Source of the DNA: Candidatus Rokuibacteriota bacterium
GTDB taxonomy: Bacteria; Methylomirabilota; Methylomirabilia; Rokubacteriales; CSP1-6
NCBI GenBank assembly: GCA_016209385.1
Contig: JACQWB010000136.1
Location: forward strand, 5,880-69,879
Length of the DNA: 64,000 bases
Direction of reading: 5' to 3'
In this document: one piece after another, positions 24,633 to 63,224 of the stretch
How the letters are laid out: each line of letters starts with the position of its first letter
How positions within the stretch are numbered: position 1 is the first letter of the stretch
The notes under the pieces: generated by a model
The model's database searches: none
What the model saw: only the letters and a program-made list of their open reading frames with translations
Told to the model about the DNA's origin: nothing
Made by a program: the position numbers and the translations under genes

Positions 24633-25181
24633 ATGCGCGGCTGGCCGGTGAACAGTCGAGCGGAGAGCGCCCGGTCGGCCGAGGCAAAGTGGTACGCGCT
24701 CTGGACCCAGAGCAACTGCGAGCAGCTCGTACACGATCAGCTGGCGGCGAAGGGGTATCATCCGTTTCTTCCGAAGCTGGGCGCCTGGTCCAGGCGCGGG
24801 GGCGTGCGGCGTCTCATCGACGTTCCGATGTTCCGCGGGTACCTCTTCCTGAACCACACGATGGACAAGTCCAGTTACATCGAGGTGCTCAAGACGCGGG
24901 GCGTGGTCCGCGTTCTGGGGGAGCGGTGGGATCGCCTGGAGGTGGTCCCGGACAGCGAGATCGAAGCGATCCAGCGGGTTCTGCGCGTGCGCATCCCGGT
25001 TCTGCCGTATGCGTACTTGCGGGAAGGCCAGCGGGTGCGCATCACCGGCGGGCCGCTGGCAGATATCGAGGGCATCCTGGTGCAGCGCAGACCGAACAAA
25101 GGGCTGCTGGTTCTCTCCGTGGACCTGCTCAAGCGGAGCATCGCGGTGGAGGTCGATTGTACGCGCGTGGCCGCCGCGTAG
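24633..25181 (+). CDS. NusG-paralog transcription antiterminator (NGN + KOW domains; RfaH/UpxY/LoaP-like). First gene of the EPS operon.
   Basis: NGN region WYALWTQSNCEQLVHDQLAAKGYHPFLPKL...VPMFRGYLFL. KOW region GQRVRITGGPLADIEGIL. Confidence 0.75.
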   Translation: MRGWPVNSRAESARSAEAKWYALWTQSNCEQLVHDQLAAKGYHPFLPKLGAWSRRGGVRRLIDVPMFRGYLFLNHTMDKSSYIEVLKTRGVVRVLGERWDRLEVVPDSEIEAIQRVLRVRIPVLPYAYLREGQRVRITGGPLADIEGILVQRRPNKGLLVLSVDLLKRSIAVEVDCTRVAAA

Positions 25182-25267
25182 GCGCCTGGACCGGCGGTCC
25201 GCGGCACCGGCAGGGCGTGTGCTTTAGGAGTTGAAGAAGCGCGCAGTGGGATGCTATAAGCGACAGC

Positions 25268-26398
25268 ATGGCGATGCGGGCGGGAGGGGCCGCGCTGGCG
25301 GTCGTGCTCCTGGGAGCGGTGCTCGTCCCGGGCCTCGCCGGCGCTCAGCCTGGCGTCTTCGTGACTCCCTCCTTCTCCATCGCCGAGGTGTACGACGACA
25401 ACCTGTTCTTCACTCCCTCCCGACGCGAGAAGGACCTGATCTCGCGCTTCAGCCCGGGGATTCAGGCCGGCTACCAGTCCGTCCCGCTCACGCTCCTGGG
25501 TCGCTACACGTTCGACGCGGAGATCTATCCCGACCACCCGGAGCTGGACGACGCCCAGGTGCGCCAGGAAGCCGGGATCGAGTTCCGGTCCCGGCCAAAC
25601 CGGACGCTGACGCTGTCGTTCGACGGGGCATTCCTGGAAACGCAAACGCCCGGCCAGCTCAACGTGGCGACCGGCATTCTGGTGGGGCGGGTGCGCGCCC
25701 AGCGCCTCTCCGCCAAGCCCGGCGTCGCCTACGAGTTCGACCCCCTCACGGCCGGGGCTGCGGAGTACACGTTGACGGAGGACGAGCTGTCGGGGGGTGT
25801 CACGATCCTGACCCATGTCGGCGACCTTCGCCTCGACCGGCGGATCACGCCGCTGGACACGGGGAGCGTGGGCTATACCCTCCGCGAGTTCGACTTCGAC
25901 CCGGGCGGCACCACCACCTCCCATGCGGTCACGCTCGGCTGGACGCGCCAGCTCACGCCGCTGACGAGCCTCACGCTTCGCGGCGGACCCCGCTTCAGCG
26001 AGGGGTCGGTGGACCCGGAAGTCTCGGCCTCGATCCGCCATCGGCTCAGGCTCGGGGAGGTCTCGTTCACGTACTCGCGCAGCCAGACCACGGTCATCGG
26101 GCGGGCGGGCAGCGTGGACAACGAGGCCTTCATCGCCACCGCGGTGCTCGAGCCCCTGCCGTCGCTGGAGGTACGCGCCGCGCCGAGCCTCCTTCGGACC
26201 TTCGACGCCGACCGGGAAGCCAGGGTGTACGCGCTGGATCTGACGGCCGAATACAAGATCACGGCGTGGCTTTCCCTCGAAGGCGCCTACGAGTTCAGTT
26301 TCCAGGAGGGCGGCGTCAACGCGATACGCGACGAGGAGATCTCCCACAATATCATCCTGCTGCGGCTGACCGTCAAGCAGCCCTACCGCATTTACTAA
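25268..26398 (+). CDS. Outer-membrane beta-barrel protein of the EPS locus (EpsL-like).
   Basis: Signal peptide. Alternating amphipathic beta-strands throughout. C-terminus ends with the aromatic residue RIY. Confidence 0.65.
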   Translation: MAMRAGGAALAVVLLGAVLVPGLAGAQPGVFVTPSFSIAEVYDDNLFFTPSRREKDLISRFSPGIQAGYQSVPLTLLGRYTFDAEIYPDHPELDDAQVRQEAGIEFRSRPNRTLTLSFDGAFLETQTPGQLNVATGILVGRVRAQRLSAKPGVAYEFDPLTAGAAEYTLTEDELSGGVTILTHVGDLRLDRRITPLDTGSVGYTLREFDFDPGGTTTSHAVTLGWTRQLTPLTSLTLRGGPRFSEGSVDPEVSASIRHRLRLGEVSFTYSRSQTTVIGRAGSVDNEAFIATAVLEPLPSLEVRAAPSLLRTFDADREARVYALDLTAEYKITAWLSLEGAYEFSFQEGGVNAIRDEEISHNIILLRLTVKQPYRIY

Positions 26399-27849: not shown

Positions 27850-29412
27850 GTGGCGCACGGCATGGCCGATCAGGCGCAACAGGGGTCCGGGGTCCACCTG
27901 GCGCAGGAAGTGTGGTCGCGCCGGAAGTGGTCGGCCATCCTGGTCTTCATGGCGACGTTCAGCCTGGTGGTCAGCGTCGTGAACTTCCTCCCGAGCATTT
28001 ACCGCGCCACGGCCACGGTGCTCATCGAGCGCGAGCAGGTCCCTGCGACGTTTGTCAGGCCCGCGGTCACCGTGGAGCTCGACACGAGGCTTCAGACCAT
28101 CAGCGAGCAGACCCTGAGCCGCGCGCGGCTGCTGGAGCTGGTCAACCTCTTCGACCTCTACCCGGAGGTGAAAGGCCGAGCTCCGCTTGAGCACATCGTC
28201 GAGCGGATGCGGCGCGATATCAAGCTCGAGCTCAAGCAGGTCGAGCACACGGTCGGGCGCGGCGCGACCGTCGCCTTCGCGCTCAGCTACCGCGGGCGCG
28301 ATCCGCAGAAAGTCGCCAACGTGGCCAACACGCTGGCGTCGTTCTACATCGAGGAGAACTGGAAGATCCGCGGGCGGCAGGCGACGGAGACGACCGAGTT
28401 CTTCAAAGTCCAGCTCGACGAGATGCGGAAGCGGCTGGAGGAGCAGGAACGCCGGGTCGGCGAGGCGAAGCGACGGTATCCCGGCGAGTCTCCTCCTCAG
28501 ATGCAGGCGAACCTGCTCACGCTGGAGCGGCTCAGCGCTCAGCTTCGGCTGAACATCGAACGGCTGACCCGGCTCATGGAGCGGAGGGAAATCCTGGCGC
28601 GGCAGCTCGCCGAGGCGGCTCCGCGCGGCGCGGGGGGCGGGCCCAGCGCCAGAGCGGATCGGCTCGGCAAGCTGAAGGAAGAGCTGATCGAGCTTCGCCG
28701 GAGTTACACCGAGAAGTACCCGGATGTGATCCGGTTGAAAGCGGAGATCGCCGCCCGGGAGCGCGAGGCCGAGGCGAAGCCGGACGCGGAGGCGGACCCC
28801 GCTGTCCAGCGGCTGCGGCGGTCACTCCGCGAGGCGGAGACCGATATCGACGCCCTCAAGGACGAGGAGAAGCGGCTGAAAGAGGCGATCGCCGCGTACC
28901 AGCGGCGGATCGAGAACACGGCGGTCCGGGAGCAGGAGTTCACCCAGCTCCTGCGGGATTACGAGACGATGAAAGACCTCTACAGCTCGCTGCTGAGGCG
29001 GTACACGGACGCCCAGCAGGCGGAACATTTGGAGCAGGACCAGAAGGGGGAGAAGTTCAGCATGCTGGATCGCGCCGTGGTGCCGAACCATGCGGTCGCG
29101 CCGAACCACTTCCGGCTGATCGCCATGGGCCTGATGCTTTCCCTGGCGCTGGCCGTCGGCGTGGTGGTGGCGGCCGAGCAGGTCGACACGTCGTTCCACA
29201 CGGTGGACAGCCTGCGGGGCTTCACGAGCGTCCCGGTGCTGGTGAGCATTCCGCCGATCGTCACCGACGACGATATCGTCCGGCAGCGCCGGCGCGCCTG
29301 GCTCATCGCGGCCGCTTCGGCTGTGGGTCTGCTCCTCATCGTCGGGATGTCCTATTTCATCGCGCACGGCAACGAGCAGCTCGTGTCGATGCTGGCGCGC
29401 GGCGGGTCGTAG
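27850..29412 (+). CDS. Polysaccharide chain-length determinant protein (Wzz / PCP family, EpsF-like).
   Basis: N-terminal TM segment, long coiled-coil periplasmic region, C-terminal TM segment. Confidence 0.8.
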   Translation: MAHGMADQAQQGSGVHLAQEVWSRRKWSAILVFMATFSLVVSVVNFLPSIYRATATVLIEREQVPATFVRPAVTVELDTRLQTISEQTLSRARLLELVNLFDLYPEVKGRAPLEHIVERMRRDIKLELKQVEHTVGRGATVAFALSYRGRDPQKVANVANTLASFYIEENWKIRGRQATETTEFFKVQLDEMRKRLEEQERRVGEAKRRYPGESPPQMQANLLTLERLSAQLRLNIERLTRLMERREILARQLAEAAPRGAGGGPSARADRLGKLKEELIELRRSYTEKYPDVIRLKAEIAAREREAEAKPDAEADPAVQRLRRSLREAETDIDALKDEEKRLKEAIAAYQRRIENTAVREQEFTQLLRDYETMKDLYSSLLRRYTDAQQAEHLEQDQKGEKFSMLDRAVVPNHAVAPNHFRLIAMGLMLSLALAVGVVVAAEQVDTSFHTVDSLRGFTSVPVLVSIPPIVTDDDIVRQRRRAWLIAAASAVGLLLIVGMSYFIAHGNEQLVSMLARGGS

Positions 29413-29423: not shown

Positions 29424-30428
29424 ATGTACCTGGAATTCTTCGGCCTGAAGGCGAAGCCGTTCAACAACACGCCTGACCCGAAGTTTCTCTACCTCACGCC
29501 GGGTCATCGCGAGGCGCTGGCGCACCTCGTGTACGGGGTCCAGGAGCAGAAAGGGTTCATCGTGCTCACGGGTGAGGTGGGGACCGGCAAGACGACGCTG
29601 CTCCGCGCCCTGCTTGAGCGGCTCGACGGCAGCAACACGGCGGTTGCCTTCGTCTTCCACTCGGCCCTCTCGTTCGACGACGTCCTCGAGTACATGCTCG
29701 AGGACTTCGGCCTGGGGAAGGTCGGGAAGAGCCGGGTCGAATGCCTGGTCGCGCTGAACGACTTCCTGATCGAGCGGCGGCGCGTCGGCCAGAACACCGC
29801 CGTGATCCTCGACGAGGCCCAGAACCTGCATCCGTCGACGCTCGAGCAGATCCGGCTCCTCTCGAATGCCGAGACGGCCACGGACAAGCTGCTGCAGATC
29901 GTGCTGGTGGGCCAGCCGGAGCTCGGGGCCAAGCTGGAGCTTGCGGAGCTGCGCCAGCTCAGGCAGCGGATCGGGCTCCGCTGCGCCATCTCGCCGTTGA
30001 CGGCGGCGGAGACCGGGGACTACATCCGGAGCCGCCTCCGGATCGCGGGGGCGCGGGATCTCAGCCTCTTTACCGAGCGCGCGGTGCGCCGGATCGCGCA
30101 GTACGCGGGCGGGATTCCGCGTGTCGTGAACCTGGTCTGCGACCACTGTCTCCTCATCGGGTACGCCGACCAGACGCGGCGGATCGATCGCGACATCGTG
30201 GAGCGGGCGATCGAGTACTTCGAGGAGGGCGCGCTGGCGCTCCCGCGGCGACAGGGGTTCGCCGCGCTCGCGCCGCTGCGGGGATTCCGGTGGCTCGTCG
30301 GAGCGCTCATCGCCTCCGTGATCGGCATCCTCGCGGGGTTGGCGTTGCAGCCCGATGCGGTGGCGTACGTGTCCGATTTGGTGTCCGGATCGCTCTCGAG
30401 CCTCGCGGACGCGCTGGGCGCCCAATGA
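29424..30428 (+). CDS. AAA ATPase of the ExeA/GspA-like family (secretion ATPase subfamily associated with PEP-CTERM-type EPS loci).
   Basis: Walker A motif GEVGTGKTTLLRAL, Walker B motif AVILDEAQNL. Confidence 0.8.
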   Translation: MYLEFFGLKAKPFNNTPDPKFLYLTPGHREALAHLVYGVQEQKGFIVLTGEVGTGKTTLLRALLERLDGSNTAVAFVFHSALSFDDVLEYMLEDFGLGKVGKSRVECLVALNDFLIERRRVGQNTAVILDEAQNLHPSTLEQIRLLSNAETATDKLLQIVLVGQPELGAKLELAELRQLRQRIGLRCAISPLTAAETGDYIRSRLRIAGARDLSLFTERAVRRIAQYAGGIPRVVNLVCDHCLLIGYADQTRRIDRDIVERAIEYFEEGALALPRRQGFAALAPLRGFRWLVGALIASVIGILAGLALQPDAVAYVSDLVSGSLSSLADALGAQ

Positions 30429-31459
30429 GCGAATTTTTCAGGGCGCTCGAGCGAGCCGAACAGGAGCGCATCCTGCGGGAGCAGGCGCGCCAACGGGAAG
30501 CCGGTGCGGTCGCGGTCGAGCCTCCCGGTGACGTCGCACCAGAAGAGACCCCGCCGGCAGCGGCCCCGCCGACGGTCCAGGAGCCGGTGTCAACGGGCGT
30601 CGAGCGGCCGGTCGAGGTGGAGGTCAGCCAGCCGGAGGCGCGGTCCGAAGACGGAGCGGTTCCCGCTGGCGTCGATGGCCACATGGTGAGCCTCATCACC
30701 CCGAGGGCGTTCGCGGCGGAGCAGTATCGGCGGCTTCGCTATGTAGTCGAGCAGCTCCATGCGAATGCCAACCTTTCGGTCGTCGCGGTCACGAGTCCCT
30801 CGGTCGGTGATGGCAAGTCCGTCACCGCCATCAATCTCGCCGGCGCCCTCGCGCAGGCGGTCGACGGGAAGGTGCTCCTCGTCGAAGCGGACCTGCGCCG
30901 GCCGTCCGTCGCCCATAAGCTGGCGCTCGGCGAATCCGCGGGGCCCGGGCTCGTGCGGGCGATCCTGGACCCGAACCTGACCCTGGAGAGCGTGGTGTGC
31001 CGCCATCCGGTGTTCAATCTGTCGATCCTCCACGCCGGCCGGAGCGAGGCCGCTCCGTACGAGTTGCTGAAATCGCCGCGGCTCGGAGAGCTGATCGCGG
31101 ACGCGCGCCGTCGTTACGAGTACCTGGTGCTCGATATGCCTCCCTTGCTGGCGGTGCCCGATTGCCAGGAGCTCGCGCAGTGGGTGGACGGCTTCCTCAT
31201 CGTCGTGGCCGCCAACAGGACGCCGCGCAAGCTCGTCGAGGAATCCCTGAACCTCATCGAGCCGAACAAGGTTGTCGGGTTCGTATTCAACCGAGACGAT
31301 CGACCGCTCTCCGGGTACTACGCGTACTACTACGGCTACGGGCCCGCCGAGGGCGACCTGCTGGGATGGTGGGGCCGCGCCGCGAAAAAGCTCGAGGGGT
31401 CGATCCGGGGGCGGCGGTTCCTCCGGGGAGCGCGGCCCGCCCGGGCGCCGCGACGCTGA
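30425..31459 (+). CDS. Bacterial tyrosine (BY) autokinase, EpsG/Wzc cytoplasmic-domain type.
   Basis: Walker A motif TSPSVGDGKS. C-terminal tyrosine cluster SGYYAYYYGYG. ATGA start/stop overlap with the upstream ATPase gene. Confidence 0.8.
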   Translation: MSEFFRALERAEQERILREQARQREAGAVAVEPPGDVAPEETPPAAAPPTVQEPVSTGVERPVEVEVSQPEARSEDGAVPAGVDGHMVSLITPRAFAAEQYRRLRYVVEQLHANANLSVVAVTSPSVGDGKSVTAINLAGALAQAVDGKVLLVEADLRRPSVAHKLALGESAGPGLVRAILDPNLTLESVVCRHPVFNLSILHAGRSEAAPYELLKSPRLGELIADARRRYEYLVLDMPPLLAVPDCQELAQWVDGFLIVVAANRTPRKLVEESLNLIEPNKVVGFVFNRDDRPLSGYYAYYYGYGPAEGDLLGWWGRAAKKLEGSIRGRRFLRGARPARAPRR

Positions 31460-54655: not shown

Positions 54656-56581
54656 ATGTGCGGGATTGTCGGCATCGTCAAGCTGAATCCACGCGAGAGC
54701 GCTGAGGAAGCGCGGCTCAAGGGGATGCGGGATGTCCTGCGACATCGGGGGCCCGATGGCGAGGGGCTGTGGATCGACGGCCCGGTCGGGCTCGGGATGC
54801 GCCGGCTGGCCATCGTGGACGTGGCGGGAGGCCACCAGCCCATGGCCAACGAGGATGAGACGGCCTGGATCGTCTACAACGGAGAGATCTACAACCACCG
54901 GGTGCTCCGTCCCGAGCTCGAGGCACGGGGCCACCGCTACCGGACACGGAGCGACACGGAGACGATCCTCCATCTCTACGAGGAGGACGGGGAGCGCTGT
55001 GTCGAGCGGCTCCAGGGGATGTTCGCGTTCGCGCTCTGGGACCGCGCCCGCGGGCGGCTTCTCCTGGCGCGGGACCGGCTCGGGATCAAGCCGCTCTACT
55101 ACGCCTGCACTGACGAGGAGCTGCTCTTCGCCTCGGAGATCAAGGCGATCCTGGCCGCGGGTCCCATCCGGCCCGCGCTGAACGCGGCGATCCTTCCTGA
55201 GTTCCTGGCCACGCGCTTCGTCGCCGGAGAGGAGACCTTCTTCCGCGGCGTGCGGAAGCTCTTGCCCGGGCGGACGCTCGCGTGGTCGCCTGCCGAGGGG
55301 TTCTCCGAGCGCCGGTACTGGCGGCCGCCGCCGGGCACGCGCGACGCCGGGATGACGCTCGAGGAGCACGCCCGCGAGGTGCGCGCGCGGCTCGAGGCCG
55401 CCGTCAGGAGCCACCTGATGAGCGACGTGCCGCTCGGCCTGTTCCTTTCCGGGGGGATCGATTCGAGCGGGCTGGCCGCCCTGATGGCGCCCATGGTGAG
55501 GGAGCCCATCCGCACCTTTGCCGTCGGCTTCTCCGATCCCGAGGCGAACGAGCTGGCCTACGCCCGTCTCGCCGCGCGCGCGGTGGGAGCGGAGCACCAC
55601 GAGGTGATCGTTTCCCCCGGGGAGTTCTTCGAGGCTCTCCCGCGGCTGGTCTGGCAGGAGGACGAGCCCATCGCGTTCCCCTCCAGCGTGCCGCTCTACT
55701 TCGTGTCCCAGCTCGCCCGCGACCACGTCAAGGTGGTGCTGACCGGGGAGGGAGCCGATGAGCTGTTCCTCGGCTACAACCGCTACCGGGTGACGGCCTG
55801 GAACGAGCGGCTCGGGCAGGCGTACTGGGCACTCGCTCCCCGAACGGTCCGGAGCACGGTGCGCCGACTCACACAGGATCTGCCGCGGGCGCTGGGCCGG
55901 TACGCCGAGCGGACATTCCTCGCCCTCGAGCCCGGGCCCCGGAAGCTCTTCTTCGAGAACTTCGCCGTCTTCCCTGAACTCCTCCAGCACCGCCTCCTTG
56001 CCGACCCGCGGCTTCTGGCTGCCCGGGATCCCTACGCGGAAGAGCTTCGCTGCTACGCGGAGGCCGGCGGCGGAACCCTCGACCAGATGAGCCGCGCGGA
56101 CCTCCAGACCTACCTGGTCGAGCTGCTCATGAAGCAGGACCAGATGAGCATGGCGGCCTCGATCGAGAGTCGGGTGCCGTATCTGGATCATGAGTTCGTC
56201 GAGCATGTGGTGGGGATCCCGGGACGTTTCAAGCTCCGCGGCTGGCGGACCAAGGCTGTGCTCAGGGAAGCGCTGCGTGGCCTCGTGCCGGGGACGATCC
56301 TCACACGGCGGAAGATGGGGTTCCCGGTGCCCGTGGGGCGATGGTTCCGGGGCCCGTTCTGGCCGATCATCGAGGAGTTCGTCCTGGGGCCGCGCGCCCT
56401 CGACAGGAGGCTCTTCGAAACGTCCGCGGTCGAGCGGCTTGCCGACGAGCACCGGGCCGGCCCCGGCGCGCACGGCGATCGCCTCTGGCTCCTCGTGAAC
56501 CTGGAGATCTGGCAGCGGATCTTCCTCGACGGCGAAGACCCGACGGCGGTCACGTGGCCGGGAGCGCGCCAGCGGGCGTGA
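54656..56581 (+). CDS. asnB: Second asparagine synthetase-family amidotransferase (paralogue of 48233-50155).
   Basis: MCGIVGIV, SGGIDSS, 641 aa. Confidence 0.9.
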   Translation: MCGIVGIVKLNPRESAEEARLKGMRDVLRHRGPDGEGLWIDGPVGLGMRRLAIVDVAGGHQPMANEDETAWIVYNGEIYNHRVLRPELEARGHRYRTRSDTETILHLYEEDGERCVERLQGMFAFALWDRARGRLLLARDRLGIKPLYYACTDEELLFASEIKAILAAGPIRPALNAAILPEFLATRFVAGEETFFRGVRKLLPGRTLAWSPAEGFSERRYWRPPPGTRDAGMTLEEHAREVRARLEAAVRSHLMSDVPLGLFLSGGIDSSGLAALMAPMVREPIRTFAVGFSDPEANELAYARLAARAVGAEHHEVIVSPGEFFEALPRLVWQEDEPIAFPSSVPLYFVSQLARDHVKVVLTGEGADELFLGYNRYRVTAWNERLGQAYWALAPRTVRSTVRRLTQDLPRALGRYAERTFLALEPGPRKLFFENFAVFPELLQHRLLADPRLLAARDPYAEELRCYAEAGGGTLDQMSRADLQTYLVELLMKQDQMSMAASIESRVPYLDHEFVEHVVGIPGRFKLRGWRTKAVLREALRGLVPGTILTRRKMGFPVPVGRWFRGPFWPIIEEFVLGPRALDRRLFETSAVERLADEHRAGPGAHGDRLWLLVNLEIWQRIFLDGEDPTAVTWPGARQRA

Positions 56582-56639: not shown

Positions 56640-57497
56640 ATGGTGATAGGGACGAGCAAGGCGACCGGCAAATCTCGCGAGAAACGTTGGGACGAAGAAG
56701 CCGGCTTCTTCGACGATGCGGCTCGAAGGATCGATCCTGGGACTCTGCGCACGGATCCCCTGACGTTCCGGCGTTATTCCAGCGCGGTCTTACGCAAGCG
56801 CTTCAGCATAGAGTTCCGCATCAGGATCTTGGGTGCCATGAAGGACAAGACCATCCTCGATGTAGGCTGCGGAGACGGCCGCAACGCGGTGTTATTCGCG
56901 AAGCTCGGAGCGAAGGTCACCGGCATTGATCTCTCGGCTGAGGCCCTCCAGGTCGCCCGACTCCGTGCCGAGGTCAACGGCGTGTCGGACCGCCTCACCT
57001 TCGTCTGTACTCCCGTTGAGACAGCGGACCTACCGGATAACTCGTTCGATATTGCCTGGGGGGACGGCATCCTGCACCACGTGATTGACGAGCTGGAGCT
57101 CGTCATGGGTCGCTTGGTCCTCTGGGTCAAGCCGGAGGGTTTTCTTCTGTTCTCGGAGCCCGTCAACCTGTTCCCACCGCTGCGGCGACTCCGACAGATG
57201 ATCCCTGTGCACACCGAAGCTACGCCGGGCGAGCGTCCCCTTCTGAGAGCGGAGGTCGACATGCTCCGGCAATACTTCCTCGACCTTCGGATGAGGCACT
57301 ATCATCTTCTCGGCCGCCTTGACCAGTTCATCCTCGTCAACTGTAACTACGAGAAATCCCCGGCCTTCCGGAGGGCGATCGTGAGCTGGACCGACCTCAT
57401 CGACTACGCCCTCCTGTCCCTGCCCCTCTTCAAGAACTTGGGCGGCAGCTGCGTGATGTACGGCCATCCGAACCAGAGGAGAAACTCACGCGGATGA
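56640..57497 (+). CDS. Class I SAM-dependent methyltransferase.
   Basis: [28 protein letters not shown] (motif I). Confidence 0.75.
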
Positions 57498-57770
57498 GCG
57501 GGCGAATCGACGGGCAAGTCCGAGAGCGGAAATGGTAGCGTGATGAGCCCGCAGTTGTCGGGGGCATGGCTCGCGTGTATGTCGACGGCCGCTTCCATGC
57601 TGAGGTAGACACCTACGCGGCCGTGGATCAGCCGCAGTCTGTCCTGTACACGACGAGTGGCCTGCCGGCAGGGACCCACACCCTCACGATCGAGGTGACC
57701 GGGACCAAGAACGCGGCGTCGGGCGGTGCCTGGGTGTGGGTGGATGCGTTTGAAATTTCGCCCTGACCCG

Positions 57771-58739
57771 ATGAGGTGGCGGGAGCGTCTCGAGCGCGGG
57801 TTCTTCCTGGTGGAGCGCGTGGTCACGGCGCTCCTCTACTCGTGGTGCGTCGCGCGGGAGCGCTTCGGGAGAGGGGCGAGAGTGCCGATCTTGATGTACC
57901 ACCAGGTCGGCGATCCCCTGAGGGGAGTCAGGGCGTGTCAGGATTGCGTCTCTCCCGGCTGCTTCACCCGGCAGCTGCGCGCCATCCTCAGAGCGGGGTA
58001 TCGGGTGATCTCGCTCGGGCAGCTCGTCCGCTGGCTCGACGCTTCACCCGATGCGCTGAAACGCTGCGTCGTCCTCACCTTCGATGACGGCTTCCGCGGC
58101 CAGTTCAGGAACGCCTATCCCGTCCTTCGGCGGTACGGGGTCCCCGCCACGTTCTTCCTCATCGCCGGGTATATCGGGACAGACACGTTCTTCCCCCACC
58201 TCGGCCTCGCGGGCAGGCCGGATGGCGGGAGGGATGGGGCGCTCTCGGACTGGCGTCCGCTCTCCTGGGACGAGGCGAAGGGGCTGGCTCGAAACGGCAT
58301 GGAGATCGGCTCCCACAGCGTGTCCCACCGATCGCTGGGGCGCATGGGGAGGGACGAGGCGGCGGCCGAGGTCCGGCGGTCGAAGGAGATCCTGGAGGAG
58401 CGCCTGGGCATCCGCGTCGAGGGCTTCGCGTATCCGTTCGGATCGCGCGCCTACCGTGACTTCGATCGGGGCGTCCAGGAGCTGCTCCGTGAAGCCGGCT
58501 ATCGCGTTGCCTGTACGACGGTGGTGGGCCGAAACAGCGGGGGCGCGGACCGCCTGGCGCTCCGCCGCATTCCGGTGGAGGAAGCGGACGGGCCCTTCCG
58601 CATCCGCTGCAAGCTCGTGGGCGCGTACGACTGGGTGGGCGCGGTCAAGGCGCTCTGGCAGCGCCTGGTGCCGCGCGAGGAGAGCGTTGACCTCGAACTG
58701 GCCGCGCCTCAGGCGTCGGCTCGTGGGAGCGCGTCGTGA
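57771..58739 (+). CDS. Second polysaccharide deacetylase (NodB domain). Start uncertain (the track ORF begins at 57726).
   Basis: VVLTFDDGFRGQFRNAYPVLRRYGVPATFF...GSHSVSH. Confidence 0.75.
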   Translation: MRWRERLERGFFLVERVVTALLYSWCVARERFGRGARVPILMYHQVGDPLRGVRACQDCVSPGCFTRQLRAILRAGYRVISLGQLVRWLDASPDALKRCVVLTFDDGFRGQFRNAYPVLRRYGVPATFFLIAGYIGTDTFFPHLGLAGRPDGGRDGALSDWRPLSWDEAKGLARNGMEIGSHSVSHRSLGRMGRDEAAAEVRRSKEILEERLGIRVEGFAYPFGSRAYRDFDRGVQELLREAGYRVACTTVVGRNSGGADRLALRRIPVEEADGPFRIRCKLVGAYDWVGAVKALWQRLVPREESVDLELAAPQASARGSAS

Positions 58740-60025
58740 GTGTCCTGGTTACGGACGCGAGCGGCAACCACGCGCTGGCGGTGGTCAGGTCGCTCGGCCG
58801 GCGGGGGATCCGCGTGGCCGCGGCCGACAGCGCGTGGTGGGCGAAGAGCTTCTTCAGCCGCTACTGCGCGCGCCGAGCCCTCCATCCGTCGCCGGCGGGG
58901 GGAGTGGACGCGTTCGTGAGCGGACTCTGCCGGATCCTCGACGAGGTCAGGCCGATGATGCTGATGCCGATGACCGAGCGGACCATCCTTGCGCTCATGG
59001 TCAGGCGAGAGGAGATCGAATCCCGGGTCGCCCTGGCCCCGCTCCCCGCTCCGGAAGCGCTCTCCGTCGTCTTCGACAAGCACGCGACGATCGAGCTGGC
59101 CACGTCTCTCGGCGTTCCGGTGCCGAAGACGCTTCGCCTCTCCGGCCTGGAGGATCTGGACCGGCTTCGCTCCGAGATCTCGTTCCCCGCGGTGATCAAG
59201 CCGAGGCGGTCCGAGATCTGGACGGCCGACGACCGGATCGTGCCGGGCGGGCCCGTCGAGTACTGCTTCAGCGCCGAGGAGCTGGAGGCGAAGTATCTGG
59301 CCGTTCACCGCAGGGCGCCGCTGCCGCTCATCCAGGAGTTCATCCCGGGCGAGGGGTACGGGGTCTCGGTCCTGTACCGCCGCGGGCGGCTCAAGGCGCT
59401 GTTCGCGCACCGGCGGCTCCGGATGATTCGCCCCACCGGCTCGGGAAGCTCGCTGCGCGAGAGCATCGCCCCTCCGCCGGCCATGGTGGATGCCGCGCGG
59501 GCGCTCCTGGACGCGCTCGCATGGCACGGCGTCGCCATGGTGGAGTTCAAGCTGGACGCGCGGGATGGCACACCGAAGCTGATGGAGGTCAACGGCCGCT
59601 TCTGGAACTCGGTCCCCCTCGCGGTGGCCGCCGGCGTGGATTTTCCCTTTCTCCTGTACCGCCTCGCGGTGGACGGTGATGTGCGTGAGCACCTGGAGTA
59701 CCGGGTGGGAGTGCAAAGCCGGTGGCTCGTCGGGGATGTCCGGCACCTGGTGGAGGTGCTCGGCGGGAAGCCGCGGGGATGGGCCGACGGATTTCCCTCG
59801 CGCTGGAGAACGCTGCGGGACTTCATGAAATTTTTCGGACGGGACATGCACTACGACGAATTCTGGCTGTCGGACCCGCTTCCGCTGTTTGCGGATTTCG
59901 CCGACTTCTTCTTTCGCCAGGTCCCCCAGCGCCTCGTCCCGCGCCGCCCCACAGCCGTCGAGGAGAAGCCGGCGTGCGAATTCGCCCCGAGTCGGATGGG
60001 AGGGCCATGCGGATTCTCTGGGTGA
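58736..60025 (+). CDS. ATP-grasp fold enzyme.
   Basis: FPAVIKPRRS ... LIQEFIPGEGYGVSVLY ... MVEFKLDARDGTPKLMEVNGRF is typical of the ATP-grasp family. Confidence 0.65.
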   Translation: MSVLVTDASGNHALAVVRSLGRRGIRVAAADSAWWAKSFFSRYCARRALHPSPAGGVDAFVSGLCRILDEVRPMMLMPMTERTILALMVRREEIESRVALAPLPAPEALSVVFDKHATIELATSLGVPVPKTLRLSGLEDLDRLRSEISFPAVIKPRRSEIWTADDRIVPGGPVEYCFSAEELEAKYLAVHRRAPLPLIQEFIPGEGYGVSVLYRRGRLKALFAHRRLRMIRPTGSGSSLRESIAPPPAMVDAARALLDALAWHGVAMVEFKLDARDGTPKLMEVNGRFWNSVPLAVAAGVDFPFLLYRLAVDGDVREHLEYRVGVQSRWLVGDVRHLVEVLGGKPRGWADGFPSRWRTLRDFMKFFGRDMHYDEFWLSDPLPLFADFADFFFRQVPQRLVPRRPTAVEEKPACEFAPSRMGGPCGFSG

Positions 60026-61902
60026 AGGTGGGCGGCCTCTGGCCCCTCACGAGCGGGGGGCGCCTCCGCAGCTTTCACATCGTCTCCGAGCTGTCGCGTC
60101 GTCACCGGCTGATCCTGCTCACGACCCATGGTCCGGCTGACGATCCTGGCGCGCTCGCCGCGCGTCTGCCGCGCTGCGAGCGGATCGTGTCGCTGCCGTA
60201 CGCGATCCCGAAGTACCGGAGCGCCGGCTTCGCGCTCGCCGTGCTGCGGTCGTGGCTCTCGCCCCTCCCGGTGGACATCCTGAGGTTTCGTGTCCCGTCG
60301 CTTTCCGGCGAGGTTCGCCGGATCCAGGGGAGCGAGAAAGTGGACGTATGCGTGGCGGATTTTCTGAGCGCCACGCCCAACGTCCCGCTGGACGGCCCGG
60401 TCCCGGTGGTGCTTTTCGCCCACAACGTTGAGCACATGATCTGGAAGCGCCTGAGCGAGAACGAGCCGCGGCTGTGGAGGCGGCTGCTCCTCGAGATCGA
60501 ATGGCGGAAGATGCGGCGGTACGAGGCCGACGTCTGTCGCCGGGCCGCATCCACGATCACGGTCTCGGATCTCGATCGCGCCCTGCTGCTCGCGTTGGCC
60601 CCGACCGCCCGCATGTGGGTGACCCCGACCGGCGTCGATACGTCCTATTTCGTGCCGGATGGAAGGCGGGAGGCTCGCGCGGCGGTCGTCTTCACCGGGT
60701 CCATGGACTGGTACCCGAACGAGGACGCCGTTCTCTGGTTCGTGGACGCGGTCCTGCCCCGGATCCGTCGTGAAGTGCCGGAGGCGTCGTTTACCGTGGT
60801 CGGCCGGAACCCGACTCGGCGCCTGCTGGCCGCGGTCGCGGAAGCAGGCGTTCGGGTGACGGGAACCGTGGATGATGTCCGGCCGTACATCGCGGAGGCC
60901 GCGGTGTACGCCGTGCCGCTCAGGATCGGCGGGGGAACGCGGCTCAAGATCTTCGAGGCGCTCGCGATGGGAAAGGCGGTGGTCTCGACCGCGGTCGGCG
61001 CCGAGGGTCTTCCGCTCGCTCCCGGCGAAAACTTCCTCCAGGCGGACGAACCGGAGGAGTTCGCCCGCGCGGTCGTCTCTCTCCTGAGGGATCCGGCGCG
61101 GCGGCGGCAGCTCGGCATGGCGGGACGGCGGCTGGTCGAGGAGCGCTACGCCTGGCCGGAGGTGACACGCCGGTTCGCTGGGCAGTGCGGGGAAGCGGCC
61201 GCGATCACGCTCCCGGGGAAGAGCAACGCTCGAGACTTCGCCGGACTCCGAGAACCCTTCGGCAAGGCGCTCGCCAGACGGATCCTTCCGCGCGTGCTCG
61301 TCGGCCACCTCCGCGCGTTCCGGACGCTTCGCCCCCGTGACTGGCCGCGCTACTGGACGCTGAGGCTCCGGCGGGCGCTCCCCGCACGGCGAAACGGCCT
61401 GCCCGGGCCGGGTGCAGCGATCCGTTCCGTCCTGTTCGTCTGCCGGGGGAACGTGATTCGGAGTCCAATGGCCGCCGCGCTGCTCAGGCGGCAGCTCGCC
61501 GGTTCTCGGGGCGGTGCGATCTCGGTCGCGTCCGCGGGGCTTCGCGCGGTTGCCGGAGAGCCGGCGGACCCCCGGGCGCGGCGGGTTGCCGGACGGTTCG
61601 GCGTCTCGCTGGAGGACCATCGGGCCCAGCCGTTGACGCCCGAGCTGGTGGCGCAGGCGGACATGATCGTCGCCATGGATTCCCTCATTGCAGCCGAGCT
61701 GCGGGGACGGTACGCGGCTGCGCGGCGCAAGACCGTCCTGCTCGGGGAAATCGCGGACCCCTACGACGGCGACGAGAGCGGGCTCGGCCGCTGCTACGAG
61801 CGTGTCGAGTCTGTCGTTCAGCAGCTCGCGTCCGGGCTCGCCCCGGCGGAGGAACACGGAACCGGCCCGGATGGACCGGGTCAGGGAGGTGATCGGAGTT
61901 GA
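60007..61902 (+). CDS. Fusion protein: N-terminal GT4 glycosyltransferase + C-terminal low-molecular-weight protein-tyrosine phosphatase (Wzb-like).
   Basis: GT4 region GGGTRLKIFEALAMGKAVVST. PTP P-loop VLFVCRGNVIRSP (CX5R-S) and the D-P-Y loop ADPYDGD. Single uninterrupted 631-codon frame. GGGAGGG Shine-Dalgarno sequence upstream of ATG 60007. Confidence 0.8.
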   Translation: MRILWVKVGGLWPLTSGGRLRSFHIVSELSRRHRLILLTTHGPADDPGALAARLPRCERIVSLPYAIPKYRSAGFALAVLRSWLSPLPVDILRFRVPSLSGEVRRIQGSEKVDVCVADFLSATPNVPLDGPVPVVLFAHNVEHMIWKRLSENEPRLWRRLLLEIEWRKMRRYEADVCRRAASTITVSDLDRALLLALAPTARMWVTPTGVDTSYFVPDGRREARAAVVFTGSMDWYPNEDAVLWFVDAVLPRIRREVPEASFTVVGRNPTRRLLAAVAEAGVRVTGTVDDVRPYIAEAAVYAVPLRIGGGTRLKIFEALAMGKAVVSTAVGAEGLPLAPGENFLQADEPEEFARAVVSLLRDPARRRQLGMAGRRLVEERYAWPEVTRRFAGQCGEAAAITLPGKSNARDFAGLREPFGKALARRILPRVLVGHLRAFRTLRPRDWPRYWTLRLRRALPARRNGLPGPGAAIRSVLFVCRGNVIRSPMAAALLRRQLAGSRGGAISVASAGLRAVAGEPADPRARRVAGRFGVSLEDHRAQPLTPELVAQADMIVAMDSLIAAELRGRYAAARRKTVLLGEIADPYDGDESGLGRCYERVESVVQQLASGLAPAEEHGTGPDGPGQGGDRS

Positions 61903-63224
61903 TGCGCGTGAGCGTCTTCGGGCTGGGATACGTCGGATGCGTGAGCGGGGCCTGCCTGGCGAGGGCAGGACACGAGGTGGTCGGGGTCGATGTGAACTCG
62001 GAGAAGGTGGCGATGGTCAACGCCGGCTCGTCGCCGATCGTGGAGCCCGGGCTGGGCGACCTGCTGGCCGAGGTCGTCGGGGCCGGCCGGCTGAGGGCCA
62101 CGGTCTCGAGCGAGGAGGCTGTTGAGGGCTCGGACCTCGCGCTGGTCTGTGTCGGCACGCCGGGGCGCCCCAACGGGCAGCTGAACGTGGAGGCCGTGGC
62201 GCGCGTCGGGAGCGAAATCGGTCGGGCCCTCGCCGGGCGGCCGGACCCGTACACGGTCGTGCTCCGGAGCACCGTCCTTCCCGGAACCACGGAGCGGGTC
62301 CTCGTCCCCGCCCTCCTCGCGGGCGTCGGGGCGGAGTCGGGATCCCGCCTGCGAGTGGCTGTCAATCCGGAGTTCATGCGCGAGGGTTCCGCCCTGCGGG
62401 ACTTCGCGCATCCTCCGCTCACGCTGGTGGGGTGCGAGGATCCGGAAACCGCCTCCCAGCTCCGGTCGCTCTACGCGGCTGTCGATGCGCCATTCATCGC
62501 CACAGCGACGAAGACGGCGGAGATGGTCAAGTACGTGTCGAACGCCTTCCACGCGCTCAAGATCTGCTTTGCCAACGAGATCGGTGACGTGTGCGCGGCG
62601 CTGGGCGTCGACGCCCACGAGGTGATGCGCATCTTCCTCCTGGACAGGAAACTCAACGTGTCCGAGGCGTACCTGCGCCCGGGGTTCGCCTTCGGCGGCT
62701 CGTGCCTGCCGAAGGACCTCCGGGCGTTGCTCTACCGCGCGCGCGCCGCCGACATCGGCGTCCCGCTGCTGTCCGCAGTCCTGCCCTCGAATGAGGGGCA
62801 GATCCGACGGGCGGTGGAGGCGGTCCTGGAAACGCGAATGCGACGGGTGGGAGTGGTGGGCCTCGCCTTCAAGCCCGGGACCGACGACCTCAGGGAAAGC
62901 CCAATGGTTGCGCTCGTGGAAGCGCTCATCGGCAAGGGGTGTGACGTGCGCGTTCTCGACGCGGATGTCTCGATCGCCCGGCTGGTCGGAGCGAATCGCC
63001 GCTACATCGAGGAGGAGATCCCGCATATCGCGTCGCTGATGTGCCAGGACGTGGCGACGCTGCTCGCCCACGCCGAGGTGCTGGTGATCGGCAACCCCAG
63101 CCCGGAGGTGGCGCGGGCCCTGGCGGCGGTCGGCCCTCACCAGGTCGTCGTCGATCTCACGCGGGGCGCAGTCGACCGGCGGGCAGGGCCGGGTGAGGGG
63201 GGTCCCCTGCGATGCGTCGAATAG
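61899..63224 (+). CDS. Nucleotide-sugar 6-dehydrogenase (UDP-glucose / GDP-mannose dehydrogenase family).
   Basis: MRVSVFGLGYVGCVSG Rossmann motif. Catalytic motif GFAFGGSCLPKD. Confidence 0.85.
   Translation: MMRVSVFGLGYVGCVSGACLARAGHEVVGVDVNSEKVAMVNAGSSPIVEPGLGDLLAEVVGAGRLRATVSSEEAVEGSDLALVCVGTPGRPNGQLNVEAVARVGSEIGRALAGRPDPYTVVLRSTVLPGTTERVLVPALLAGVGAESGSRLRVAVNPEFMREGSALRDFAHPPLTLVGCEDPETASQLRSLYAAVDAPFIATATKTAEMVKYVSNAFHALKICFANEIGDVCAALGVDAHEVMRIFLLDRKLNVSEAYLRPGFAFGGSCLPKDLRALLYRARAADIGVPLLSAVLPSNEGQIRRAVEAVLETRMRRVGVVGLAFKPGTDDLRESPMVALVEALIGKGCDVRVLDADVSIARLVGANRRYIEEEIPHIASLMCQDVATLLAHAEVLVIGNPSPEVARALAAVGPHQVVVDLTRGAVDRRAGPGEGGPLRCVE

Follow-up and report, generated by a model that had tools for sequence, protein, structure and literature searches.

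The cluster analysed here raises the question of whether a polysaccharide locus whose core is closest to XrtA/PEP-CTERM-associated families, and in which no exosortase is in view, depends on an exosortase encoded elsewhere or is complete in itself. We consider it likely that it constitutes a self-contained Wzx/Wzy EPS/capsule operon, placed on a divergent branch that is sister to the XrtA/PEP-CTERM-associated EPS loci. Gene calling based on third-codon-position GC outlined some 31 genes on the forward strand, from about 24.6 kb to the end of the window (the whole 64-kb stretch of DNA analysed), most of them overlapping or spaced by less than 60 nt (Table 1). The host is an uncultured soil/groundwater bacterium (Rokubacteria).

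An earlier note on this DNA had delimited the cluster to 24633-63224, which proves too narrow: the conserved regulators at 17073-22185 belong with it, and its 3' end lies beyond the window, where the last gene (g31) is cut off and related loci carry on with a GT2 gene. All the families named in that note were found at the superfamily level, including its accessory set of a heparinase II/III-like protein, an ATP-grasp enzyme, three methyltransferases, a YvcK protein and a DegT-like enzyme. The genes it had missed encode the UpxY/RfaH-like antiterminator, GlmS, two NDP-sugar dehydrogenases, the Wzx flippase, the LMW phosphotyrosine phosphatase (LMW-PTP) fused to the third GT4 and a conserved secreted protein.

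Table 1. Features of the cluster and of its regulators, with position in the window, strand and supporting model or method (scores in bits, against the cut-off where given).
Feature	Position	Strand	Model or method
STAS	17073-17990	+	NCBIfam
STAS	18003-18374	+	NCBIfam
Anti-sigma kinase	18390-18809	+	NCBIfam
SpoIIE/PP2C phosphatase	18797-19402	+	Pfam SpoIIE, 50.8
PAS-HisKA_3 kinase	19399-20700	+	NCBIfam
LuxR/GerE response regulators (two)	20703-21335, 21469-22185	+	NCBIfam
Putative leader element	24559-24609	+	10-bp hairpin (24559-24587), then invariant 25-mer
g01, UpxY/RfaH/LoaP-like specialised NusG paralogue (operon antiterminator)	24633-25181	+	PF02357
g02, 18-stranded outer-membrane beta-barrel (376 aa)	25268-26398	+	AlphaFold2, Foldseek
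g03, short D1D2 (Class 3) OPX, 201 aa	26619-27224	+	Poly_export + SLBB
g04, short D1D2 (Class 3) OPX, 193 aa	27249-27830	+	Poly_export + SLBB
g05, polysaccharide co-polymerase (PCP, chain-length determinant)	27850-29412	+	TIGR03007, PF13807
g06, ExeA/GspA-like P-loop ATPase, one C-terminal TM helix	29424-30428	+	TIGR03015
g07, cytoplasmic BY-kinase	30425-31459	+	TIGR03018, TIGR01007
g08, GlmS (glutamine-fructose-6-phosphate transaminase)	31467-33299	+	TIGR01135
g10, priming polyprenyl-phosphate glycosylphosphotransferase (PGT)	34230-35642	+	TIGR03025, PF02397
g11, Trm112-domain methyltransferase	35639-36577	+	
g12, YvcK/GlmR-like UDP-GlcNAc-binding protein	36574-37695	+	TIGR01826, 350 vs 196
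g13, NDP-(N-acetyl)hexosamine 6-dehydrogenase-like	37692-39002	+	TIGR03026, 417 vs 189.8
g14, Wzy_C/O-antigen-ligase-like membrane protein	39127-40566	+	PF04932
g15, GT4	40585-41871	+	TIGR03088, 190.7 vs 409
g16, FemAB-like GNAT	41868-43154	+	PF13480
g17, divergent DegT-like PLP enzyme	43157-44296	+	PF01041, 59.7
g18, FemAB-like GNAT	44409-45590	+	PF13480
g19, NodB deacetylase	45559-46725	+	
g20, Wzx-type MOP flippase	46731-48224	+	PF13440
g21, AsnB	48233-50155	+	TIGR03108, TIGR01536
g22, GT4	50106-51374	+	
g23, heparinase II/III-like (HepII/III-like)	51408-53609	+	PF16889, PF07940
g24, methyltransferase	53576-54502	+	
g25, AsnB	54656-56581	+	TIGR03108, TIGR01536
g26, methyltransferase	56640-57497	+	
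66-aa ORF, single beta-sandwich-like repeat	57566-57766	+	Repeat homology
g27, NodB deacetylase	57726-58739	+	NCBIfam
g28, ATP-grasp ligase	58736-60025	+	NCBIfam; weak PDB matches to ATP-grasp enzymes
g29, GT4 (stp1-like) fused to C-terminal LMW phosphotyrosine phosphatase	60007-61902	+	TIGR03087, PF01451
g30, UDP-glucose 6-dehydrogenase (UGDH)	61899-63224	+	PF03721, PF00984, PF03720
g31, conserved secreted protein, family unassigned, cut by window end	63212-64000	+	Signal peptide

The regulatory block is present in identical order (46-82% amino acid identity) upstream of L168, an orthologous locus in which the order of the regulators, NusG, export module, GlmS, PGT, YvcK, dehydrogenase, Wzy, GT4 and GNAT genes is kept, and at least 11 loci from gammaproteobacteria or myxobacteria also have homologues of its genes beside the 3' cassette. 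Family scans of the window did not find the canonical regulators PrsK, PrsR and PrsT. The g01 product matched the NusG domain (PF02357, 60.6 bits vs 22.2) and fell short of the UpxY model (NF033644, 91.9 against 100), presenting 59% identity with the product of the L168 NusG gene. Its longest ORF begins at 24501, but the true start is probably the ATG at 24633, 24 nt downstream of the 25-mer ACCAAAGGGGGCGAAGCCTTGCCAG (24585-24609). The 17-nt core of this 25-mer occurs once in the window (chance expectation 0.01) and, among 170 loci, only in L168, L086 and L088, always directly upstream of a homologous NusG-like gene. The adjacent hairpin shows compensatory changes in 4 of its 10 pairs; because only four sequences are compared, the evidence for a conserved leader element ahead of g01 is just suggestive.

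The export module begins with a protein whose AlphaFold2 model (pLDDT 91.5, pTM 0.84) encompasses a signal peptide followed by some 18 strands, with outer-membrane porins of the OccD/OprD type as best Foldseek matches (TM ~0.5). It scored below cut-off with TIGR03016 (43 bits vs 90.85) and PF10082 (22.4 vs 23.7), a domain present in many of its homologues. The barrel g02 is the predicted porin partner of the OPX proteins g03 and g04, which contain only the Poly_export and SLBB domains and score 138 and 142 bits with TIGR03027 (cut-off 180) and 141 and 148 bits with their top NCBIfam match, EpsY (NF041843, cut-off 320). A composite translocon formed by short OPX proteins and an 18-strand barrel has been published (PMC9601211, PMC9603273), and the D1D2-only OPX proteins of the window, lying beside the modelled barrel, match it. 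The co-polymerase g05 (TIGR03007, 264.8 bits vs 278.85; PF13807 GNVR, 35.9 bits) has TM segments at residues 26-44 and 420-438, bounding a periplasmic region of about 375 aa. The ATPase g06 (TIGR03015, 294.5 vs 324.5) carries GEVGTGKTT and DEAQ motifs and has a fully identical (100%) counterpart in a MAG named 'Candidatus Rokubacteria bacterium', and the kinase g07 (TIGR03018, 147 vs 230.65; TIGR01007, 105.9 vs 108.05) has a Walker A motif and, C-terminally, the tyrosine cluster YYAYYYGY.

The OPX genes form a tandem pair in the window (66% mutual identity) and a single copy in relatives. Internal paralogy, described earlier as extensive, does exist in the form of such pairs, but its extent was overstated: only the OPX pair is recent, the remaining pairs share 29-42% identity, and the two AsnB copies each have their own counterparts in relatives.

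Downstream of the export module, g08 matched TIGR01135 with 811 bits (cut-off 418), occupies the same place in L168 (75% identity) and would supply amino-sugar precursors. [quoted passage not shown] The priming enzyme g10 exceeded the cut-off of TIGR03025 (326.5 vs 295.55; PF02397, 203 bits) and not that of TIGR03013 (336.9 vs 393.35). Similarly, g14, with about 10 TM segments, matched PF04932 (71.4 vs 31.7) and scored below the cut-off of TIGR03097 (127 vs 188). The flippase g20, also with about 10 TM segments, matched PF13440 over its full length (42.3 vs 23), and UDP-glucose 6-dehydrogenase is 55-79% identical across relatives.

Both GNATs matched PF13480 (123 and 134 bits), and g17, aligned with TlmJ, has a lysine where other DegT-family enzymes carry the PLP lysine. 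The 3' cassette recurs, with identities of 55-80%, in MAGs whose labels span many phyla. The AsnB proteins scored 662 and 546 bits with TIGR03108 (cut-off 816.9) and about 531 bits with TIGR01536 (cut-off 267), and g23 matched PDB heparinase III with E = 1.6e-32. The 66-aa ORF shares 37-67% identity with a repeat found in one to three copies per locus in L033, L004, L058, L028, L051 and L070, with two copies in frame within a 678-aa ORF in L033, and is probably a gene remnant. The GT4-phosphatase fusion g29 (TIGR03087, 245.4 vs 316.65; PF01451, 92.9 bits; CRGNVIRS and DPYDG motifs) recurs in only about 7 of 80 relatives, and its phosphatase domain may be a Wzb-like partner of the BY-kinase. 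The g31 product had no match in Pfam or PDB; its homologues (38-68% identity; about 530-580 aa at full length) lie 3' of UGDH in most related loci, followed by GT2.

XrtA/PEP-CTERM-associated families provided the best matches for the export/regulatory core and several enzymes. The claim that all marker families are present holds at the superfamily level but is otherwise too strong: all 11 XrtA-specific NCBIfam models that matched window genes, although each is the best match for its gene, did so below their curated cut-offs (TIGR03006 with only 21-29 bits against 276), and TIGR03019 had no match in the window. The earlier note had proposed trusted cut-offs of XrtA-family HMMs as its own test; because every XrtA-specific model fell short of them and TIGR03019 was unmatched, the result formally speaks against its assignment. 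General models (TIGR03025, PF13440, PF04932, PF02563 with SLBB, TIGR01536, TIGR03026 and TIGR01826) did score above cut-off. L085, a relative that bears an exosortase, yields nearly identical sub-threshold scores, and therefore the cut-offs do not discriminate in this lineage and do not exclude a link to an exosortase.

Family scans, an HMM built on 120 exosortase sequences and a tail scan that included a positive control identified no exosortase or PEP-CTERM protein in the window, directly extending from 39 kb to all 64 kb the absence reported previously. This locus has no exosortase among its components, and there is about an even chance that one is encoded elsewhere in the genome. Three close relatives of the export module (L085, L167 and a 9.7-kb contig) do adjoin an exosortase, the ATPases of these modules sharing 65-70% identity with that of the window, and a textbook PEP-CTERM protein adjoins L169, in which an export module of the window's type is joined directly to an AsnB-GT4-HepII/III-AsnB cassette. 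These neighbours show a genuine link between the lineage and the exosortase/PEP-CTERM system, and functional coupling is plausible. Judged by its score with the XrtA model (143 bits, cut-off 208), the exosortase of these relatives is not XrtA but an unclassified subtype. Neither exosortase nor PEP-CTERM protein is in view in L168, L083, L170 and L096, and no exosortase is in view in any of the 80 loci sharing the 3' cassette, so that its absence is no anomaly but normal among relatives of this locus.

These observations bear on the reading implicit in the earlier note, in which xrtA or an unclassified exosortase and its PEP-CTERM substrates would lie elsewhere in the same genome and the polymer would act only with the sorted proteins, which g14 might glycosylate. 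The 11 best-matching models, the scores of L085 and the neighbours of L085, L167, L169 and the 9.7-kb contig all favour such dependence, but the sensitive searches of the window, the relatives with none in view, the missing PrsK/PrsR/PrsT and the non-XrtA score of the relatives' exosortase weigh against it, and we regard it as a tentative alternative that is rather doubtful. The interpretation in the earlier note is partly supported: it stands in the closeness of the core to XrtA/PEP-CTERM families, in the lack of an exosortase and in the link of close relatives to that system, and gives way on the cut-offs, PrsK/PrsR/PrsT and the extent of the paralogy.

It is improbable that the cluster is a mosaic of two pathways or polymers, with an export and GlcNAc-uronate module (24.6-41 kb) and a horizontally acquired cassette (45.5-64 kb). 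The cassette does travel alone across phyla, sometimes accompanied by Wzy, GT4 and Wzx genes of its own (L064, L066, L074), and a 930-nt non-coding gap follows the GlmS gene, but the window holds a single PGT, Wzx, Wzy-like protein, PCP with kinase and export apparatus, its genes are all co-directional with small gaps, its GC shows no discontinuity, and in L169 this type of export module is linked straight to the cassette. Even less probable is an LPS O-antigen or protein O-glycosylation locus with g14 as a WaaL- or PglL-type ligase. The g14 product matches the 'O-antigen ligase' family PF04932, has a 'putative O-glycosylation ligase' as best NCBIfam match and could be a ligase instead of a polymerase; however, OPX, PCP-2-type, BY-kinase, LMW-PTP and outer-membrane barrel proteins together form a signature of capsule/EPS export and not of O-antigen ligation (PMC9601211), and g14 is needed as Wzy because no other polymerase candidate was found in the window gene set.

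For the self-contained Wzx/Wzy operon, gene content, folds, motifs, synteny and the lack of an exosortase in the window are observations, and from them we infer an order of steps, a polymer chemistry and a mode of regulation. GlmS and the YvcK/GlmR-like protein would raise UDP-GlcNAc supply, the two NDP-sugar 6-dehydrogenases would provide uronic acids, and the PGT would prime undecaprenyl phosphate. Three GT4 enzymes and the GT2 expected just past the window would build the repeat unit, with decoration by the AsnB-type amidotransferases, ATP-grasp enzyme, FemAB-like GNATs, DegT-like enzyme, NodB deacetylases and methyltransferases. The polymer can reasonably be predicted, from these enzymes, to contain amino sugars and uronic acids and to be amidated, de-N-acetylated, methylated and possibly aminoacylated. 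The unit would be flipped by Wzx and polymerised by the Wzy_C protein, with chain length controlled by the PCP, the BY-kinase and the GT4-fused LMW phosphatase, and would exit through a composite translocon of the short periplasmic OPX proteins and the 18-strand barrel. The NusG-type antiterminator and the leader could allow read-through of an operon of at least 39 kb, and the upstream partner-switching module and two-component system may govern expression. Exosortase would be dispensable for synthesis or export of the polymer; in Aquincola, EPS is made and released despite disruption of RpoN1, which drives PEP-CTERM gene expression (PMC9850573).

Overall, the cluster is large yet essentially ordinary, and it resembles 'exosortase-linked' clusters. 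The XrtA/PEP-CTERM (exosortase A)-associated EPS loci of Proteobacteria, reportedly described by Haft et al. in 2006, share with it the best-match families for the barrel, OPX, PCP, ATPase, BY-kinase, PGT, O-ligase-like protein, GT4 (stp1, stp2) and AsnB, and a roughly similar order, with the export core first and the decorating enzymes, AsnB and stp1 after it. Unlike them, the window lacks xrtA, EpsI, a PEP-CTERM gene and PrsK/PrsR/PrsT or sigma-54 control, scores below cut-off with all XrtA-specific models, has as its predicted regulators a partner-switching module, LuxR-type two-component proteins and a paralogue of NusG, and adds GlmS, YvcK, HepII/III-like, ATP-grasp, Wzx and the GT4-PTP fusion. 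The floc EPS clusters of Zoogloea and Aquincola are examples of such loci (PMC9850573). A further PEP-CTERM-associated system, related but of a type of its own, is the Methylobacillus eps cluster.

The zooglan-related Sphingomonadales exoPS BGC, described with epsSMASH and discussed alongside PEP-CTERM/exosortase (bioRxiv 10.64898/2025.12.21.693542), likewise combines Wzx/Wzy with PCP, kinase, phosphatase and OPX, but differs in taxon and enzyme content and contains an xrtA homologue; exosortase/PEP-CTERM systems in genomes without that BGC have been suggested to depend on other exoPS clusters (same source). The EPS system of Myxococcus xanthus, with its EpsY/EpsX (WzaX/WzpX) composite translocon and Class 3 OPX (PMC9601211, PMC9603273, PMC12819527), shares Wzx/Wzy, a D1D2-only OPX of about 200 aa adjacent to an 18-strand barrel, a PCP whose periplasmic region is long, and control by a BY-kinase. 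It differs in enzyme set, regulators and phylum, and the window has two tandem OPX proteins, an ExeA-like ATPase and a smaller barrel (376 aa) with no detectable sequence homology. Finally, although the UpxY model is narrowly missed, UpxZ is absent and the leader motif is unrelated to ops, the cluster resembles Bacteroides UpxY-headed capsule loci and RfaH- and LoaP-operons in that a specialised NusG paralogue, preceded by a putative conserved leader, opens a very long polysaccharide operon whose genes all point the same way.

The G+C content stays between 64 and 73% across the whole window, without a compositional break, and raw ORF lists were therefore crowded with spurious frames. Genes called from third-position GC and frame plots outlined an uninterrupted series of ~31 genes, all on the forward strand, running from ~24.5 kb to the end of the window. 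Neighboring genes mostly overlap by 4 nt or are spaced by less than 60 nt, and the sole long gap (930 nt) lies 3' of glmS. An earlier note, made from the sequence alone, had described positions 24633-63224 as a PEP-CTERM/exosortase-type exopolysaccharide (EPS) locus lacking an exosortase and showing extensive paralogy. NCBIfam and Pfam scans recovered every protein family it had named and revealed several it had missed. Among these are a UpxY/RfaH-like NusG paralog at the operon head, GlmS, a pair of NDP-sugar 6-dehydrogenases, a MOP-type Wzx flippase and a conserved secreted protein, incomplete at the window end; the third GT4 enzyme also carries a low-molecular-weight (LMW) phosphotyrosine phosphatase as a fusion partner.

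The enzyme complement is that of a Wzx/Wzy EPS operon of familiar type, related to XrtA-type loci as a divergent sister and located in a phylum that has received little study. A priming glycosyltransferase (PGT; TIGR03025, 326.5 bits, cut-off 295.55), a MOP-family flippase (PF13440, 42.3 bits, cut-off 23) and a Wzy-type polymerase candidate (PF04932, 71.4 bits, cut-off 31.7) with ~10 TM segments, whose sequence fits a polymerase or a ligase alike, together make up the predicted core of the pathway. The putative control module comprises a PCP (GNVR, 35.9 bits; TIGR03007, 264.8 bits) with a periplasmic span of ~375 aa, a BY-kinase with intact Walker A motif and YYAYYYGY tail, and an apparently cognate LMW phosphatase (LMWPc, 92.9 bits) with intact CX5R and DPYDG motifs. 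The GxxGxGKTT and DEAQ motifs of the ExeA-like ATPase are likewise intact. The GT4-phosphatase fusion was observed in only ~7 of 80 homologous loci, the remaining loci aligning to the GT4 portion alone.

For export, the operon encodes two OPX proteins (g03, 201 aa; g04, 193 aa) consisting only of Poly_export and SLBB domains, with PF02563, PF10531 and PF22461 spanning them end to end. Judged from their sequences, both would belong to the OPX proteins of ~200 aa or less that lack an outer membrane-spanning domain. The gene located 220 nt upstream of g03 encodes a protein (g02) modeled as a ~18-strand barrel (AlphaFold2, pLDDT 91.5, pTM 0.84), with porin-like Foldseek matches that singled out neither AlgE nor any specific porin family; the model thus points to g02 as the adjacent 18-stranded outer membrane β-barrel. 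The OPX tandem (66% identity) is peculiar to this genome, with one copy in relatives, and is the only recent duplicate, so that the claim of extensive paralogy is overstated. The AsnB copies share 42% identity, each with its own separate counterparts in relatives, and the remaining pairs are as divergent as 29% (GNATs), 31% (dehydrogenases) and 37% over 111 aa (NodB proteins).

The comparison with an orthologous locus from Methylomirabilota (L168) indicated that the operon is part of a longer unit. L168 presents the same upstream gene order as the window (STAS-STAS-anti-sigma-SpoIIE-HK-RR-RR) and then retains the window order of NusG, OPX, PCP, ATPase, kinase, GlmS, PGT, YvcK, dehydrogenase, Wzy, GT4 and GNAT, with 46-82% identity from the regulators through the GNAT. 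The ATPase of the window matches a protein of a 'Candidatus Rokubacteria bacterium' MAG at 100% identity, and for other window genes, too, the closest full-length relatives are found in Methylomirabilota/Rokubacteria MAGs. Because L168 keeps the regulator order, and because homologs of the anti-sigma, kinase and response regulator genes flank the 3' cassette of the operon (its AsnB, HepII/III-like, GT4, UGDH and neighboring genes) elsewhere, the locus begins near 17.1 kb, and not at the previously proposed 5' boundary of 24.6 kb.

The first of the 31 co-directional genes encodes an NGN-domain protein (g01; PF02357, 60.6 bits, cut-off 22.2) that scores just under the UpxY cut-off (91.9 bits against 100), and its sequence and position at the head of a polysaccharide operon are those expected of a specialized NusG paralog (UpxY/RfaH/LoaP). 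Just upstream of its gene, a hairpin of 10 bp precedes a 25-mer that is invariant. Within the window the core of this leader occurs once (chance expectation 0.01), and it was detected elsewhere only in L168, L086 and L088, the three loci with a close homolog of the NusG-like gene; the hairpin presents compensatory changes at 4 pairs among the four sequences. On four sequences, we hypothesize that this candidate element serves to recruit the antiterminator or acts as its leader. A promoter and terminator scan of the 22-35 kb region returned counts not above those of shuffled sequence.

Coordinates of features identified in the window and in related loci
Feature	Sequence	Position	Strand	Remarks
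Mrp-type multisubunit cation/proton antiporter genes	window	346-4418	-	subunits D, C, B, E
Protein without family match	window	4468-5892	-	474 aa; adjoins Mrp antiporter genes
Gene cluster that may encode minor pilins or a pseudopilus	window	9313-14714	-	GspG-like pseudopilin gene (14022-14714), then five ORFs of 153-408 aa without NCBIfam match
Terminator-like hairpin	window	22703-22731	+	12-bp stem, 9 G-C pairs; ~520 nt 3' of second response-regulator gene, 5' of g00
Signal-peptide protein g00	window	23041-24141	+	just upstream of antiterminator gene
Candidate leader element	window	24559-24609		25-mer: ACCAAAGGGGGCGAAGCCTTGCCAG
GlmS-PGT gap	window	33300-34229		~150 nt at equivalent position of L168
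Hairpin in GlmS-PGT gap	window	33496-33518		9 bp, G/C-rich, no U-tract; read by eye
ORF in GlmS-PGT gap	window	33530-33787		85 aa, Cys-rich; homologs in no locus
ORF in g26-g27 gap	window	57566-57766	+	66 aa
GT4-phosphatase fusion gene	window	60007-61902		Wzb-like phosphatase; also in L003-L007, L011, L013
ARAGORN tRNA-Gln, probably a false positive	window	62058-62148	+	91 nt; inside UGDH gene, no Rfam support
Two conserved proteins 3' of exosortase	L085	11798-13825		456 aa and ~215 aa
Two conserved proteins 3' of exosortase	L167	10946-12988		456 aa and ~215 aa
Conserved ~65-aa protein	L085	1061-1258		upstream of barrel gene
Conserved ~65-aa protein	L167	125-313		upstream of barrel gene
Conserved ~65-aa protein	L169	4446-4661		upstream of barrel gene
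Conserved ~65-aa protein	L083	2289-2486		upstream of barrel gene

The GlmS-PGT gap matched no Rfam family and showed no conservation among relatives; the possibility that it holds a missing PGT N-terminus was discarded, since none is encoded there. The ORF in the g26-g27 gap contains a single copy of a β-sandwich-like repeat that is present in 1-3 copies per locus in relatives, with two in frame within a 678-aa ORF of L033, and is probably a remnant.

The absence of an exosortase and of PEP-CTERM proteins was borne out across all 64 kb. NCBIfam and/or Pfam scans of ~50 genes detected no exosortase (TIGR03109 for XrtA, or any TIGR02602/PF09721 member), tblastn searches of the window with a genuine exosortase from a relative returned no match, and a profile HMM of 120 exosortase sequences matched none of the six-frame ORFs, even at E ≤ 10. 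A scan of the window for the C-terminal PEP, TM and basic-tail arrangement of PEP-CTERM substrates (TIGR02595/PF07589) also yielded 0 matches; the same scan recovered the sole genuine PEP-CTERM protein in the 170 fetched loci. The NCBIfam scan identified neither PrsR nor PrsT, and the window kinases scored 97 and 74 bits against a PrsK cut-off of 300.

The product of the gene preceding the operon (g00) contains an IPEPG sequence near its end and was considered as a decayed PEP-CTERM protein. This was rejected, as no frame restores a TM helix or basic tail, and the IPEPG residues form part of an unrelated conserved domain of ~145 aa (residues 220-366), in which PEP aligns with a non-conserved VSGxL. 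The domain has no Pfam or NCBIfam model, and searches returned 1,512 representative homologs, 290 of them at E ≤ 1e-30. Most of the best-matching proteins (145-1,781 aa) carry it at their very C-terminal end. Invariant in the domain are two cysteines and a GNHQ.H terminus, and the modules that precede it are of adhesin or surface type (SdrD_B, DUF11, SpaA, HYR, cadherin, PKD and PA14). It could represent a previously undescribed C-terminal domain for anchoring or for matrix binding; L168 lacks it, and a single-sequence AlphaFold2 model was unusable (pLDDT 42.7).

The missing exosortase had been highlighted as an anomaly of the locus. Among sampled loci with an ATPase at least 65% identical to that of the window, an exosortase was identified in L085, L167 and one 9.7-kb contig. 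In L085, where the ATPase is 70% identical, a bona fide exosortase lies 4.4 kb downstream; it scores above the cut-off of the general exosortase model (TIGR02602, 132 bits against 105.6), but matches no named subtype (XrtC 175/300, XrtA 143/208). Furthermore, L169 encodes a textbook PEP-CTERM protein (C-terminal end …IPEPGTLLLIGSGLAGLGAWSRKKLRK) adjoining the barrel gene, together with the AsnB-GT4-HepII/III-AsnB cassette of the window. The lineage hence appears to be genuinely connected to exosortase systems. Neither an exosortase nor a PEP-CTERM protein was found within 10 kb in L083, L170, L096 or the orthologous L168. The exosortase occupies a variable part of the locus, and relatives with none in view outnumber those that have it; its absence from the window is ordinary.

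Directly 3' of the unclassified exosortase, L085 and L167 share two conserved proteins without family assignment (79% and 66% identity), which may be exosortase partners. A conserved ~65-aa protein (…AAGxLCSAEDELxAAGYxLWSxELRxLIDII…), found in four related loci and not in the window, L168 or L170, was discarded as a marker of exosortase-linked loci, since it is also present in L083, where no exosortase is in view.

Scores for the XrtA-specific families bear on the same question. None of the 12 NCBIfam models reached its curated cut-off, and TIGR03019 had no match among the window genes. The other 11 were the top match for their gene, yet all fell below cut-off, some narrowly (TIGR03007, 264.8 bits against 278.85; TIGR03015, 294.5 against 324.5) and some widely (TIGR03088, 190.7 against 409.05; TIGR03006, 21-29 against 276.2); the scores of the others were 336.9 against 393.35 (TIGR03013), 43 against 90.85 (TIGR03016), 147 against 230.65 (TIGR03018), 138-142 against 180 (TIGR03027), 245.4 against 316.65 (TIGR03087), 127.1 against 188.1 (TIGR03097) and 546-662 against 816.9 (TIGR03108). 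The earlier note had named scores under the trusted cut-offs as grounds for abandoning its assignment; such scores were formally obtained, but they are non-diagnostic in this lineage, because the scores of L085, which carries an exosortase, are nearly equal to those of the window (ATPase 300, OPX 141, kinase 142, barrel 67), with the PCP alone reaching its cut-off. The XrtA-specific cut-offs thus do not tell loci with an exosortase from loci without one in this lineage, a point useful for annotation.

Using the third GT4 as anchor, 80 GTDB loci were fetched that share the 3' cassette, in the order NodB-Wzx-AsnB-GT4-HepII/III-[MT]-AsnB-…-GT4-UGDH-secreted protein-GT2 at 55-80% amino acid identity, in MAGs labeled as Methylomirabilota, Acidobacteriota, Gemmatimonadota, Binatia, Gammaproteobacteria, Myxococcota and Actinomycetota; an exosortase was in view in none of the 80. 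Its spread at this level of identity points to a widespread, uncharacterized polymer. Homologs of the anti-sigma, histidine kinase and LuxR-type response regulator proteins (41-69% identity) adjoin the AsnB/HepII-III/GT4/UGDH cassette in gammaproteobacterial and myxobacterial MAGs (L045, L060, L064, L066, L068, L074-L077, L079 and L081), which suggests that the association between regulators and cassette is kept across phyla.

The prediction, made in the earlier note, of a uronic acid-rich polymer that is amidated, aminoacylated, methylated and partially de-N-acetylated is reasonable in view of the encoded enzymes. The two 6-dehydrogenases would imply uronic acids. AsnB-like and ATP-grasp enzymes, as in the WbpS and Cj1438 types, give rise to uronamides and amide-linked substituents. 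The NodB enzymes would carry out de-N-acetylation, and the HepII/III-like protein, which matches heparinase III in the PDB (E = 1.6e-32), could mediate chain trimming or C5 epimerization; neither g16, one of the GNATs, nor a full-length homolog of the secreted protein gave a match in PDB sequence searches. The co-occurrence of GlmS with a YvcK/GlmR-like protein, a pair kept in L168, suggests a boosted UDP-GlcNAc supply, GlmR having been proposed to stimulate GlmS and to be antagonized by UDP-GlcNAc (PMC7525490, PMC6171935).

Overall, most of what the earlier note had observed stands, and its interpretation does so in part. A more encompassing reading, which we consider speculative and on balance unlikely, is that of an exosortase-independent sister lineage of XrtA-type EPS systems that, with a mobile cassette, makes an uncharacterized polymer, with expression driven by a dedicated NusG paralog that acts on the conserved leader RNA and with control by partner switching. 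The cassette (two AsnB, a HepII/III-like lyase or epimerase, GT4 enzymes, UGDH, the unassigned secreted protein and a GT2), present in MAGs labeled as many phyla, would be horizontally mobile, and its product would be an amidated amino-sugar/uronic-acid polymer common in soil and groundwater bacteria.

The Rokubacteria and Methylomirabilota are abundant and uncultured, with little-known cell surfaces, and the locus provides an almost full inventory of the components behind one envelope polysaccharide. Minor curiosities are the fusion of a GT4 to a phosphatase, the OPX genes in tandem, the putative leader, the cassette shared between phyla and the unassigned C-terminal domain of g00; current understanding is not overturned by these results. 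In canonical systems in which RpoN1, which drives PEP-CTERM gene expression, has been disrupted, EPS is still made, but is released instead of cell-bound (PMC9850573), in agreement with an autonomous polymer pathway.
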